Source: Escherichia coli (GTDB taxonomy: Bacteria; Pseudomonadota; Gammaproteobacteria; Enterobacterales; Enterobacteriaceae). Taken from it: a DNA stretch of 64,000 nt. The position numbers and the translations under genes are program-made. The notes beneath the pieces were generated by a model. It searched no databases and had not been told where the DNA came from. It saw only the letters and a list, made by a program, of their open reading frames with translations. Below are positions 3,230 through 8,825 of the stretch, one piece after another. The first letter of the stretch is position 1. Each line of letters opens with the position of its first letter. The stretch lies in the NCBI RefSeq assembly GCF_003334785.1, contig NZ_QOWV01000002.1; one strand, given 5' to 3'.

Positions 3230-5080
3230 ATGGCCTTATTACAAATTAGTGAACCTGGTTTGAGTGCTGCGCCGCATCAGCGTCGTCTGGCGGCCGGTAT
3301 TGACCTGGGCACAACCAACTCGCTGGTGGCGACAGTGCGCAGCGGTCAGGCCGAAACGTTAGCCGATCATGAAGGCCGTCACCTGCTGCCATCTGTTGTT
3401 CACTATCAACAGCAAGGGCATTCGGTGGGTTATGACGCGCGTACTAATGCAGCGCTCGATACCGCCAACACAATTAGTTCTGTTAAACGCCTGATGGGAC
3501 GCTCGCTGGCTGATATCCAGCAACGCTATCCGCATCTGCCTTATCAATTCCAGGCCAGCGAAAACGGCCTGCCGATGATTGAAACGGCGGCGGGGCTGCT
3601 GAACCCGGTGCGCGTTTCTGCGGACATCCTCAAAGCACTGGCGGCGCGGGCAACTGAAGCCCTGGCAGGCGAGCTGGATGGTGTAGTTATCACCGTTCCG
3701 GCGTACTTTGACGATGCCCAGCGTCAGGGCACCAAAGACGCGGCGCGTCTGGCGGGCCTTCACGTCCTGCGCTTACTTAACGAACCGACCGCTGCGGCTA
3801 TCGCCTACGGGCTGGATTCCGGTCAGGAAGGCGTGATCGCCGTTTATGACCTCGGTGGCGGGACGTTTGATATTTCCATTCTGCGCTTAAGTCGCGGCGT
3901 GTTTGAAGTGCTGGCAACCGGCGGTGATTCCGCGCTCGGCGGCGATGATTTCGACCATCTGCTGGCGGATTACATTCGCGAGCAGGCGGGCATTCCTGAT
4001 CGTAGCGATAACCGCGTTCAGCGTGAACTGCTGGATGCCGCCATTGCAGCCAAAATCGCGCTGAGCGATGCGGACTCCGTGACCGTTAACGTTGCGGGCT
4101 GGCAGGGCGAAATCAGCCGTGAACAATTCAATGAACTGATCGCGCCACTGGTAAAACGAACCTTACTGGCTTGTCGTCGCGCGCTGAAAGACGCGGGTGT
4201 AGAAGCTGATGAAGTGCTGGAAGTGGTGATGGTGGGCGGTTCTACTCGCGTGCCGCTGGTGCGTGAACGGGTAGGCGAATTTTTCGGTCGTCCACCGCTG
4301 ACTTCCATCGACCCGGATAAAGTCGTCGCTATTGGCGCGGCGATTCAGGCGGATATTCTGGTGGGTAACAAGCCAGACAGCGAAATGCTGTTGCTTGATG
4401 TGATCCCACTGTCGCTGGGCCTCGAAACGATGGGCGGCCTGGTGGAGAAAGTGATTCCGCGTAATACCACTATTCCGGTGGCCCGCGCTCAGGATTTCAC
4501 CACCTTTAAAGATGGTCAGACGGCGATGTCTATCCATGTAATGCAGGGTGAGCGCGAACTGGTGCAGGACTGCCGCTCACTGGCGCGTTTTGCGCTGCGT
4601 GGTATTCCGGCGCTACCGGCTGGCGGTGCGCATATTCGCGTGACGTTCCAGGTCGATGCCGACGGTCTTTTGAGCGTGACGGCGATGGAGAAATCCACCG
4701 GCGTTGAGGCGTCTATTCAGGTCAAACCGTCTTACGGTCTGACCGATAGCGAAATCGCTTCGATGATCAAAGACTCAATGAGCTATGCCGAGCAGGACGT
4801 AAAAGCCCGAATGCTGGCAGAACAAAAAGTAGAAGCGGCGCGTGTGCTGGAAAGTCTGCACGGCGCGCTGGCTGCTGATGCCGCGCTGTTAAGCGCCGCA
4901 GAACGTCAGGTCATTGACGATGCTGCCGCTCACCTGAGTGAAGTGGCGCAGGGCGATGATGTTGACGCCATCGAACAAGCGATTAAAAACGTAGACAAAC
5001 AAACCCAGGATTTCGCCGCTCGCCGCATGGACCAGTCGGTTCGTCGTGCGCTGAAAGGCCATTCCGTGGACGAGGTTTAA
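3230..5080 (+). CDS. hscA: Hsp70-family chaperone HscA
   Basis: Track ORF 3176-5080 trimmed to ATG at 3230 ([10 protein letters not shown]...), 616 aa; Hsp70 ATPase motifs ([17 protein letters not shown]). Confidence 0.95.
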
Positions 5081-7200: not shown

Positions 7201-7231
7201 CGCCCCGAACGTTGAATGAATTGTGGTTCTT

Positions 7232-8008
7232 ATGTCCGAAACAAAAAACGAACTTGAAGACCTGCTGGAAAAAGCAGCAACTGAACCGGCGCACCGCCCG
7301 GCCTTTTTCCGTACTCTACTGGAATCCACCGTCTGGGTGCCTGGTACGGCGGCGCAGGGCGAGGCTGTGGTTGAAGATAGCGCGCTTGATTTACAGCACT
7401 GGGAAAAAGAAGACGGCACCAGCGTCATTCCTTTTTTCACCTCGTTAGAAGCACTTCAACAGGCGGTTGAAGACGAACAGGCATTTGTCGTAATGCCCGT
7501 TCGCACGCTGTTTGAGATGACACTTGGCGAAACGCTCTTCCTTAATGCCAAACTGCCAACCGGTAAAGAATTTATGCCGCGTGAAATCAGTTTGTTGATT
7601 GGTGAAGAGGGAAATCCGCTGAGCAGCCAGGAAATCCTGGAAGGCGGTGAATCGCTGATATTATCGGAAGTCGCAGAGCCGCCAGCACAAATGATTGATT
7701 CACTCACCACCTTATTTAAAACCATTAAGCCGGTGAAGCGTGCTTTTATTTGTTCAATTAAAGAGAACGAAGAGGCACAGCCTAATTTACTTATTGGCAT
7801 TGAAGCCGATGGTGATATCGAAGAAATTATTCAGGCGACGGGAAGTGTAGCGACCGATACATTACCTGGCGATGAACCAATCGATATTTGTCAGGTGAAA
7901 AAAGGGGAAAAAGGAATTAGCCACTTTATTACCGAACATATTGCGCCATTCTATGAACGTCGCTGGGGTGGTTTTTTGCGTGACTTTAAACAGAATCGGA
8001 TAATCTAA
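7232..8008 (+). CDS. sseB: serine-sensitivity enhancing protein SseB
   Basis: Track ORF 7223-8008 trimmed to ATG at 7232 (MSETKNELEDLL...), 258 aa; synteny pepB-sseB-ryfA-sseA. Confidence 0.9.
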   Translation: MSETKNELEDLLEKAATEPAHRPAFFRTLLESTVWVPGTAAQGEAVVEDSALDLQHWEKEDGTSVIPFFTSLEALQQAVEDEQAFVVMPVRTLFEMTLGETLFLNAKLPTGKEFMPREISLLIGEEGNPLSSQEILEGGESLILSEVAEPPAQMIDSLTTLFKTIKPVKRAFICSIKENEEAQPNLLIGIEADGDIEEIIQATGSVATDTLPGDEPIDICQVKKGEKGISHFITEHIAPFYERRWGGFLRDFKQNRII

Positions 8009-8010
8009 AA

Positions 8011-8031
8011 TATGCCGCCCAAAGGGCGGCA
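8011..8031. terminator. GC-rich hairpin ATGCCGCCC-aaa-GGGCGGCAT between the sseB stop and the small ORF stop
   Basis: Perfect 9-bp stem with a 3-nt loop; on the minus strand it is followed by the U/A-rich run AUAUUUUA. Confidence 0.5.
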
Positions 8032-8038
8032 TTCGGGC

Positions 8039-8176
8039 TTACTTGCTGCTCTGAAGGTTGTTAACCACCAGTAAATTGTCGCCGGAGAGACTCCGGTTAT
8101 TATTTACCTCGGTTAACAGCGCACCAGAAACAATAAGTACGATACAAAAGCACCGTATCTTCATTGTGCGGTCCAT
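8039..8176 (-). CDS. candidate small membrane protein encoded within the ryfA locus (45 aa from the first ATG, 41 aa from an internal ATG at 8164); hypothetical TimP-like toxin
   Basis: Manual translation of the minus strand: MDRTMKIRCFCIVLIVSGALLTEVNNNRSLSGDNLLVVNNLQSSK, stop at 8039-8041, followed immediately by a GC hairpin at 8011-8031. Below the ORF-track reporting size (shortest listed ORF is 60 aa). No canonical Shine-Dalgarno seen, so this is speculative. Confidence 0.3.
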   Translation of the reverse strand: MDRTMKIRCFCIVLIVSGALLTEVNNNRSLSGDNLLVVNNLQSSK

Positions 8177-8294
8177 GCGAAGACCGCATCACGACAGCAC
8201 CACTGGCGATATTGCCGCGATAGCAAGCGCTGTGAAACACCTGCATTTACGGCCACGGAACATCCTTTCCTAAAGCCAGCGCCCGTTTGCGAGA

Positions 8295-8491
8295 CGGCGG
8301 AAAGGGCCGCAGTGGATAATACACTAACAGAACAATAATAACTCTCTTTTGCTTGACAAAAAGAGAGTTACTGGCGAGTATTGTCTCCGCTGAGACGCGC
8401 TTGCATTACTACGGTAATACAACCTGCTGGAAAGGCCGCGAACCGGACCAGCAACAAAAAACCGCCTGATTTTGGCGGTTTTTTGTTTTTT
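8295..8491. repeat. ryfA-locus tandem module, copy 1 (~200 nt, ends in a bidirectional terminator)
   Basis: Aligns by eye to 8617-8810 at roughly 80-85 percent identity; shared blocks GGCGGAAAGGGCCG, ACTCTCTTTTGCTTGACAAAAAGAGAGTTACTGG, CCTGCTGGAAAGGCCGCGAACC, then a terminator. Confidence 0.7.
8455..8491. terminator. bidirectional intrinsic terminator (AAAAAACCGCC-tgatttt-GGCGGTTTTTTGTTTTTT)
   Basis: GC stem flanked by an A-run on the 5-prime side and a T-run on the 3-prime side, so it is functional on either strand. Confidence 0.75.
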
Positions 8492-8616
8492 AAAGGAAAG
8501 TGAATTTACATGTTTAAGTAATATCTTTTACCGGTTAGAATTTTTAATTTTGAGCAGGATTTGTTTATATTTGTCTGAATTCGGACTAATAAGCCAGGTT
8601 ATTTTATTACCGAACA

Positions 8617-8810
8617 CGGCGGAAAGGGCCGGTGTCGATAATACGCTAAATAAACAATAATTACTCTCTTTTGCTTGACAAAAAGAGAGTTACTGGTGAG
8701 TATTGTTTTGCTGTGAAGCACCTGCGTTGCTCATGTAACACAAGTCAACCTGCTGGAAAGGCCGCGAACCAGACTAGCAATAAAAAACCGCCAAATTCGG
8801 CGGTTTTTTA
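8617..8810. repeat. ryfA-locus tandem module, copy 2
   Basis: Diverged duplicate of 8295-8491, separated from it by a ~125-nt AT-rich spacer. Confidence 0.7.
8782..8810. terminator. bidirectional intrinsic terminator; ends the sseA transcript and module copy 2
   Basis: AAAAAACCGCC-aaatt-CGGCGGTTTTTT, 15 nt downstream of the sseA stop on the minus strand. Confidence 0.8.
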
Positions 8811-8825
8811 TTGCCTGTAAAATAC

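Follow-up and report, generated by a model that had tools for sequence, protein, structure and literature searches.

We analysed a 64,000-nt stretch of the Escherichia coli contig NZ_QOWV01000002.1 (the window), in which pepB, sseB (7223-8008, + strand), sseA (stop at 8826, - strand) and yfhM follow one another and a gap of 817 bp, the distance from the sseB stop (8008) to the sseA stop, separates sseB from sseA; the stop-codon coordinates give the same length as the initial annotation of this DNA. In K-12-like E. coli this gap is known as the locus of the type I toxin-antitoxin system timPR (ryfA/ryfB), and the sseB-sseA region is 100% identical to many K-12-type E. coli chromosomes. Identification of the locus as ryfA, proposed at first from the letters, is secured by a match of 314.9 bits (gathering score 80) to the Rfam family RF00126 over its full length, model positions 1-296 of 296, and by the RefSeq annotation of timP, whose mRNA, formerly the small RNA (sRNA) RyfA, is the toxin transcript of the system. 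The interval initially singled out, 8295-8810, holds both copies of a duplicated module but misses ryfA/timP itself (8007-8310, - strand). Our data indicate that two copies of the gene for the antitoxin sRNA TimR lie beside timP, giving one toxin and two antitoxin sRNAs; the distal TimR-2 is probably the cognate and main repressor, and TimR-1, next to the toxin gene, a partly cross-reactive or orphan antitoxin.

The 41-aa protein encoded by timP matches the NCBIfam profile NF040796 (toxic_TimP) with 86.8 bits (cut-off 45). TimP is toxic in Salmonella (PMC7667032), and overexpression of RyfA slows growth of E. coli MG1655 (PMC4606813). An in-frame ATG four codons upstream (8176, - strand) would yield a 45-aa product (MDRTMKIR...); the start at 8164 is that of RefSeq and of the NCBIfam profile.

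Two direct repeats of ~195 nt each, modules 1 and 2, were found by repeat search. Their left blocks (8294-8384 and 8616-8706, 91 nt) are 90% identical and their right blocks (8420-8483 and 8746-8809, 64 nt) 84% identical, with a period of 322-326 nt between blocks. Blastn aligned the whole modules at 82.4% identity over 199 columns with 7 gaps (E=1e-54), and the mean column identity of a MAFFT alignment was 86%; the earlier estimate of 80-85% by eye was a good one, its coordinates being off by just 1-4 nt. An nhmmer search of the complete 64-kb window found exactly two copies and no third. AT-rich DNA of 128 nt (8488-8615) lies between the modules, and the palindrome CTCTCTTTTGCTTGACAAAAAGAGAG, as first noticed, is unbroken in both. 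The view of the ~200-nt module as one sRNA unit holds for its right ~100 nt, a plus-strand sRNA gene, but not for its left ~90 nt, a divergent promoter region that contains the first ~17 nt of the timP transcript (- strand), the palindrome and promoter-like hexamers on both strands.

Reading the sequence directly, we located a promoter for timR-1 on the plus strand of module 1, with TTGACA (8353-8358) and GAGTAT (8376-8381) 17 nt apart. The timR-2 promoter in module 2 (TTGACA, 8675-8680; 17 nt; GAGTAT, 8698-8703) has the same hexamers and a single substitution in the spacer. On the minus strand, a promoter scan of module 1 returned promoter-like sites for timP, TTGTCA-16-TATTGT (8359 to 8332) and/or TATTAT (8323 to 8318), and the TTGTCA-16-TATTGT site is present again in module 2. 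TimR-1 is divergent from timP without overlapping it, 77 nt from the timP 5' end, and TimR-2 faces only a 17-nt timP stub, the same divergent arrangement in relic form. Window 8387-8457 (+ strand) has exactly the published sequence of the sRNA ECS011, CCGCUGAGACGCGCUUGCAUUACUACGG...CAGCAACAA (Shinhara et al. 2011, PMC3175480), and ECS011 gave strand-specific northern bands of ~95 and ~100 nt (PMC3175480). As ECS011 is a published strand-specific transcript, the strand of copy 1 is settled, and that of copy 2 follows by homology. The transcribed strand, initially held to be undecidable from sequence, is thus the plus strand, as indicated by the TTGACA-17-GAGTAT promoter, family homology and structural covariation and, for copy 1, by the ECS011 transcript.

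Nhmmer searches with the two copies as query retrieved homologues of TimR, encoded divergently from timP, from E. coli variants, E. whittamii, several Citrobacter species, Salmonella enterica subspecies arizonae and diarizonae, and Superficieibacter. The comparative alignment that had been proposed as a check on covariation was built from 17 TimR sequences, and its consensus comprises a variable 5' end, two stem-loops and a terminator. Standard pairs occupy 98.5% of its cells, compared with 34-56% when pairing partners were slid by 1-3 columns; 8 pairs changed on both sides, and none of 500 shuffles reached the covariation score. All helices are intact in both window copies (fold z-scores of -4.5 for TimR-1 and -3.8 for TimR-2), with a double compensatory change in stem-loop 1 (AUUAC/GUAAU in TimR-1 versus GUUGC/GUAAC in TimR-2). 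TimR-type genes in both modules agree with the early suggestion of paralogous sRNA units rather than junk. No family of Rfam 15 matches the TimR sRNAs of the window; matches to the rimP leader, AgrB, ohsC, OrzO-P, RNAI and leader peptides (22-35 bits) fell below the gathering scores, all lay over terminator hairpins and were discarded.

The repeat search also showed that a plus-strand stretch of timP (8229-8247, GCTGTGAAACACCTGCATT) recurs at the 5' ends of both sRNAs, with 89% identity at 8710-8728 (copy 2) and 74% at 8389-8407 (copy 1). Because timP is encoded on the other strand, this repeat amounts to complementarity between the sRNA 5' ends and the toxin mRNA, and the position of the predicted site agrees with the published TimR site in stem-loop 2 (SL2) of the 5' untranslated region (5'UTR) of timP (PMC11228461). 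By hand count, TimR-2 pairs with the resident timP over 19 contiguous bp, two of them G:U, and RNAduplex gives 21 (-45.3 kcal/mol), whereas TimR-1 forms 17 of the 19 pairs, with two internal mismatches (-36.3 kcal/mol). The relation is reversed in single-module E. coli such as W21 (L002), whose timP site (GCTGAGACGCGCTTGC) matches TimR-1 exactly (-47.7 kcal/mol) and TimR-2 poorly (-28.0 kcal/mol). In a matrix of 16 sRNA 5' ends against 14 timP sites, cognate duplexes ranged from -36 to -48 kcal/mol and non-cognate E. coli duplexes from -18 to -31 kcal/mol. Both copies had been taken for functional sRNA units, and both are indeed of the TimR type, but they are unequal: TimR-1 and TimR-2 differ mainly at their target-recognising 5' end, and it is the distal copy that fits the resident timP.

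Three recognition alleles can be told apart in E. coli, a (GAGACGCGC), b (GUGAAGCAC) and d (GUGGGGUGC, the O157:H7 type), together with a degenerate sRNA form, c, that has neither stem-loop 1 nor a timP partner. Type c (5'-AGACGAGAUACACUUGCAG) is the second sRNA of two loci (L003:1241-1365 and L005:3141-3265), where it stands after the same AT-rich spacer as in the window and behind a different promoter region; its duplexes with any timP allele reach only -10 to -19 kcal/mol, and it has probably decayed. Of the 29 timP positions at nt 55-83, 15 vary among six E. coli alleles, compared with 22 of 276 outside this stretch (Fisher p=2.6e-8), and none of the six lacks the SL2 hairpin. One K-12-type locus, that of ETEC1739 (L094:824-852), carries a single C-to-T change in the timP site (GAAATACC), which places a C:A mismatch in the middle of the duplex with TimR-2.

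Table 1. Features of the timPR locus, in positions of the window
Feature	Position	Strand	Basis and remarks
timP mRNA (formerly RyfA)	8007-8310	-	Rfam RF00126, RefSeq
timP coding sequence, 41 aa, MKIRCFCIVLIVSGALLTEVNNNRSLSGDNLLVVNNLQSSK	8039-8164	-	RefSeq WP_001380605.1, mapped from L001
Predicted TimR-binding site, SL2 of timP 5'UTR, allele b, RNA 5'-AAAUGCAGGUGUUUCACAGC	8229-8249	-	Repeat search, duplex prediction, SL2 hairpin in all alleles
Module 1: timP 5' end, divergent promoters, timR-1 gene	8294-8487		Repeat search, MAFFT, blastn, nhmmer
Divergent promoter region of module 1, around palindrome 8339-8370	8332-8384	both	Promoter scan, direct reading, published ECS011 5' end at 8387
TimR-1 (ECS011, IS129; RyfB-type), recognition allele a, 5'-CCGCUGAGACGCGCUUGCAUU	8387-8487	+	ECS011 reads, northern, fold, covariation
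Rfam IS128 interval: timP stub, junction, spacer, antisense of TimR-1 terminator	8442-8650	-	RF00125
TimR-1 two-way intrinsic terminator, spacer-preceding type, loop CUGAUUUUG	8453-8487	both	Folding
AT-rich spacer, junction of tandem timPR units	8488-8601		Confined to multi-unit loci of E. coli
Deletion junction TTTATTACCGAACA	8602-8616		Equals sseB 7925-7938 (14/14 nt); abuts nt ~17 of timP 5' end
Module 2: timP 5' stub, divergent promoters, timR-2 gene	8616-8812		Repeat search, MAFFT, blastn, nhmmer
TimR-2 (predicted), recognition allele b, 5'-UGCUGUGAAGCACCUGCGUU	8709-8812	+	Promoter, fold, pairing with resident timP
TimR-2 two-way terminator	8777-8814	both	Folding; ~12 nt past convergent sseA stop

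The origin of module 2 can be read from loci that carry more than one unit. L003 and the full tandem arrays L006 and L088 contain the spacer of the window as well; none of the 80 sseB loci that we retrieved from other species has it. As a candidate for a decayed toxin gene the spacer was rejected: an iterated nhmmer profile of timP matched nothing in it, and only 13-nt similarities at chance level were seen. In the full arrays (GF131, which is L006, as well as L088 and L091-L093), the spacer and the junction sequence continue into an 87-nt fragment of the sseB 3' end and then a complete second timP with its own TimR. The presence of this fragment (L006:3115-3201; L088:1691-1777; annotated by RefSeq as a partial SseB pseudogene) means that the duplicated unit started within sseB. 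In the window, the 14 nt of sseB directly abut nt ~17 of timP, whereas in the arrays they continue to a full timP; module 2 is therefore, to judge from its sequence, the control region of a second timPR unit without the sseB fragment and the toxin body. The tandem duplication of the initial annotation thus stands in so far as there are two direct copies, but module 2 would be a deletion remnant of a second toxin-antitoxin unit and no simple 200-nt copy.

Copy number at the locus had been said to vary among Escherichia and Shigella, and single-module, two-module and full tandem loci were all encountered. Single units in E. coli combine timP and TimR alleles as a/a, d/d or b/b. The window has the order timP_b, TimR_a, spacer, TimR_b; other E. 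coli have timP_a, TimR_a, spacer, TimR_c, or timP_b, TimR_b, spacer, sseB fragment, timP_d, TimR_d. The locus of FCI1 (L089:592-1435) has both modules and the deletion junction as in the window, in the order timP_a, TimR_a, spacer, TimR_b, and can be read as the mirror image of K-12, with the adjacent TimR cognate and the distal TimR_b an orphan. In TUM14664 (L090:778-1300), recombination between the two promoter palindromes has removed 322 bp, so that timP_b and TimR_b are kept and TimR_a and the spacer are gone; the background is K-12-like, its SseB and TimP proteins being identical to those of the K-12-derived Stbl4 (L001). Across these loci, the spacer-preceding and the sseA-adjacent types of terminator keep their positions and the 5' specificity parts are reassorted, a pattern that suggests recombination in the invariant core of TimR or in the palindrome of the promoters. 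The K-12 arrangement is compatible with several recombination paths, among them an array followed by a deletion and then by an allele exchange.

To see how the alleles are distributed, 50-nt probes were run by megablast against 5426 complete E. coli genomes. The probe for timP site b matched in 1971 genomes and that for the TimR_b 5' end in 2020, with both b probes found within one place in 1863; the TimR_a 5' end was matched in 4548 genomes and timP site a, at ≥80% coverage, in 3005. All four of the sampled genomes that matched timP_b only do have TimR_b, single-nucleotide polymorphisms (SNPs) just upstream having broken the megablast word. Together, the co-occurrence of the b probes and the resolution of the sampled exceptions show that a toxin allele and its matching sRNA travel together. 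The probe for the K-12-type junction matched in 1688 genomes, that for the spacer in 2158 and the whole 841-nt interval, at ≥99% identity, in 1516, and an extra, non-matching TimR_a is present in ~31% of complete genomes.

These data are consistent with a model in which the divergent promoters of module 1 drive timP leftwards (- strand) and TimR-1 rightwards (+ strand), and TimR-2 would likewise be transcribed rightwards from module 2. Each TimR consists of a single-stranded variable 5' end of ~20 nt, two conserved stem-loops and a terminator. In Salmonella, the divergent sRNA TimR blocks translation of timP through pairing between its 5' end and 18 nt in the 5'UTR of timP, as demonstrated by compensatory mutations and in vitro translation (PMC7667032), and the TimR site lies within stem-loop 2 (PMC11228461). 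By analogy, the 5' end of TimR in the window would pair with SL2 of the timP 5'UTR and prevent TimP synthesis. We infer that TimR-2 is the main repressor in K-12, because timP allele b is fully complementary to TimR-2 and imperfectly to TimR-1. TimR-2 would then act in trans from ~400 nt away, from a former second unit that has lost its toxin and the duplicated sseB 3' fragment but still has the first 17 nt of timP as a stub, the two promoters and the intact gene for TimR-2. TimR-1 would be left over from an allele exchange at the toxin gene.

Several points speak against assigning the main role to TimR-2. Its expression in K-12 is predicted, and the 2011 small-RNA survey, which includes ECS011 (TimR-1), has no entry of TimR-2 sequence (PMC3175480 supplements). 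The array-derived C0614 (MG1655 U00096.2 2651474-2651560, reverse strand) falls on window 8627-8713 (+ strand), in the promoter region of module 2; it ends at the expected TimR-2 start, just upstream of TimR-2 and not on it, and may stem from TimR-2, detected with wrong boundaries, or from transcription upstream. The predicted energy of TimR-1 with the resident timP (-31 to -36 kcal/mol) means that TimR-1 alone may repress timP well enough, TimR-2 then being redundant. Repression of TimP by the TimRs of the window is carried over from experiments on Salmonella TimR and, at the RNA level, on Shigella RyfB1. Megablast with 50-nt probes needs a 28-nt word and misses variants with nearby SNPs, and conservation of module 2 says little about selection, because K-12-type genomes are closely related and their lineage is young.

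Taken to the end, these points would make module 2 a non-functional, decaying remnant and the adjacent, expressed TimR-1 the sole working antitoxin, its two mismatches being tolerated. That published expression data exist for TimR-1 only, that TimR-1 keeps 17 of 19 pairs with the resident timP, and that a degenerate second sRNA is known elsewhere (type c in L003 and L005) would all fit such a decay. We nonetheless consider it unlikely, as the promoter hexamers of TimR-2 equal those of TimR-1 and all three of its helices are intact, and as its 5' end pairs perfectly with the resident timP and timP_b is nearly always accompanied by TimR_b. In addition, the natural one-module derivative of the K-12 type (L090) retained TimR_b and not TimR_a. 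Mismatches also matter in Shigella dysenteriae, which has tandem ryfA1/ryfB1 and ryfA2/ryfB2: RyfB1 lowers RyfA1 but not RyfA2, and a 5-nt difference in the site is enough to abolish its action on RyfA2 (PMC5333039).

Alternatively, the functional unit could be the minus-strand IS128 RNA (8650 to 8442), running from the duplicated timP promoter to the reverse TimR-1 terminator and possibly acting as an antisense RNA or sponge of TimR-1. The interval matches RF00125 with 262.1 bits (gathering score 80), a score that is not independent evidence as the Rfam seed derives essentially from this E. coli/Shigella sequence. The TTGTCA-16-TATTGT site is indeed duplicated in module 2, the minus strand of the terminator folds just as well as the plus strand, the last ~45 nt of such an RNA would be perfectly antisense to the TimR-1 3' end, and differential expression of IS128 is listed in one RNA-seq study (PMC4676190). 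However, a strand-specific northern was negative (PMC3175480) and overexpression produced no phenotype (PMC4606813); the interval lacks the TimR-binding site and its duplex reaches only -11 to -17 kcal/mol, and its 29-codon open reading frame (8528-8617, - strand) lies in the E. coli-specific spacer and so lends no cross-species support. We regard a functional IS128 as very improbable. The chances are about as slim for a TimR-1 that in K-12-type strains is freed from timP control and now acts mainly on unlinked mRNAs in trans, the modules having diverged in function and not in allele specificity. TimR-1 is expressed although its perfect target allele is missing from the genome, TimR_a is unchanged in 1688 K-12-type genomes, and Citrobacter and Superficieibacter have orphan TimR genes with no timP. 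Against this, we identified no target, retention of TimR_a may be neutral in a young lineage, and L089, the same architecture with timP allele a, fits simple allele exchange.

Beyond the window, we tentatively propose that there are at least three mutually discriminating lock-and-key alleles of TimR and timP SL2 (a, b and d), besides the degenerate c, which diversify under selection, and that orphan TimRs, those of the K-12 architecture included, form a standing repertoire of antitoxin specificities. This broader idea is possible but carries much less weight than the assignment of TimR-2. If it were correct, replacement of the toxin gene by recombination would be made safe, or incoming timP alleles would be neutralised, and in K-12 control of the toxin would fall to the distal copy, acting in trans, with the adjacent copy as a spare key. 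TimR-like genes also stand beside sseB in Citrobacter werkmanii, C. braakii and Superficieibacter (L014:3397-3489; L016:1151-1242; L054:3379-3472; weaker in L024 and L052), where ryfA/timP was not detectable with an iterated nhmmer profile or with Rfam at the gathering score; they are putative orphan antitoxins.

A further arrangement was seen in E. coli 06-00048 (L004:2730-2830), S. enterica subsp. arizonae (L026:3495-3600) and C. amalonaticus (L023, near 3505-3605), in which the body of timP runs directly into that of TimR, joined at the ~20-nt sequence common to both. As direct repeats, the timP site and the 5' end of TimR lie ~160 nt from each other, and the fusion removes both promoters and the first ~45-50 nt of timP. 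As this deletes the start of timP together with both promoters, toxin and antitoxin are inactivated in one step, and such one-step fusions apparently arose repeatedly. In E. coli 06-00048, the IS3-like element ISEcB1 moreover interrupts the TimR terminator in its 3' half, close upstream of sseA (L004:2880-4237).

Both TimR terminators consist of an A-run, a CCGCC/GGCGG stem and a U-run. An automated scan for intrinsic terminators skipped them, extending the stem through the A- and U-runs so that the tail criterion failed, and both strands were instead folded directly. The TimR-1 terminator folds with -20.5 kcal/mol on the plus and -20.4 kcal/mol on the minus strand, with a U-run on either, and that of TimR-2 with -25.0 and -26.8 kcal/mol, with U6 on either. 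These near-equal energies, with an A-run before and a U-run after the stem, uphold the initial description of the terminators as two-way. As it lies ~12 nt beyond the convergent sseA stop, the TimR-2 terminator probably also ends the sseA transcript. The two-way design would be explained by such double use, the module 2 terminator closing the convergent sseA transcript and the module 1 terminator stopping read-through from the stub promoter (the hypothetical IS128 RNA). The timP terminator, directly after the sseB stop, may serve its convergent gene in the same way. Its hairpin (8012-8032), 4 nt past the sseB stop, folds with -16.9 and -17.4 kcal/mol on the two strands and makes a third shared two-way terminator in the gap, with no clear U-run on the sseB strand.

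Pieces of this K-12 region bear several earlier names, PAIR3, IS128, IS129, ECS011 and C0614. ECS011 (IS129) is exactly TimR-1, whereas IS128 is the opposite strand of the TimR-1 terminator, the spacer and the stub. The original detection of IS128 used a double-stranded probe; in the strand-specific northern, IS128 was undetected and signal appeared on the opposite strand, which its authors explained as an artefact or as condition-specific expression (PMC3175480). IS128 is probably no genuine sRNA. PAIR3, which from its name we take to hint that the locus was catalogued among intergenic repeats, is a listed synonym of RyfA (PMC3384567).

The timPR (ryfA/ryfB) system, its variable copy number and its discriminating variable region are already published. 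In the literature that we searched, we found no statement that K-12 has two timR genes or that the second is a relic of a toxin-less unit, no report that the distal copy rather than the adjacent one matches the resident toxin mRNA or that alleles a, b and d co-occur with their partners across genomes, and no link of IS128, IS129, ECS011, C0614 or PAIR3 to TimR or to two timR genes of different specificity. Work on timPR in K-12, and in the ~31% of complete E. coli genomes with the same architecture, must count two timR genes. Deleting or probing the adjacent timR alone probably leaves the best-matching repressor in place, which could explain weak or absent phenotypes. Rfam, for its part, has no TimR family and files IS128 on the strand for which the sole strand-specific test was negative. 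More generally, the locus is a compact natural case of co-evolving sRNA-mRNA recognition alleles, in which variation is concentrated in a 29-nt site, the hairpin is preserved in each allele and the sRNA shows matching changes. It is also of evolutionary interest for the recombination that shuffles toxin and antitoxin specificities and for the recurrent one-step double inactivation.

The closest known system is timP/TimR of Salmonella Typhimurium (Andresen et al. 2020, PMC7667032; Eleftheraki & Holmqvist 2024, PMC11228461; NAR 2026, PMC13000454), which occupies the same locus beside sseB, with a homologous timP mRNA and an NF040796 protein. It shares with the window a divergent, non-overlapping sRNA of ~100 nt that pairs by its 5' end to SL2 and ends at an intrinsic terminator. 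However, Salmonella has one timR, whereas the window has two with different recognition ends, and the perfect match is the distal one, ~400 nt away behind a toxin-less stub. The ryfA/ryfB locus of Shigella dysenteriae (Fris et al. 2017, PMC5333039) resembles the full arrays of E. coli (L006, L088, L091-L093), with the unit duplicated between sseB and sseA and a short variable region of RyfA matched by the divergent RyfB. In the window, by comparison, the second toxin is deleted, one toxin faces two sRNAs and the cognate relation between adjacent genes is broken. Finally, tisB/istR-1, shoB/ohsC, zorO/orzO and dinQ/agrB of E. coli have the same divergent arrangement, with an antitoxin that pairs with ~18-21 nt of the toxin 5'UTR rather than overlapping it as a full antisense RNA, but share no sequence homology with timPR, the Rfam matches to ohsC, AgrB and OrzO-P (25-30 bits) being below gathering. 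The zor/orz genes, too, occur as tandem paralogous units with discriminating pairing regions.

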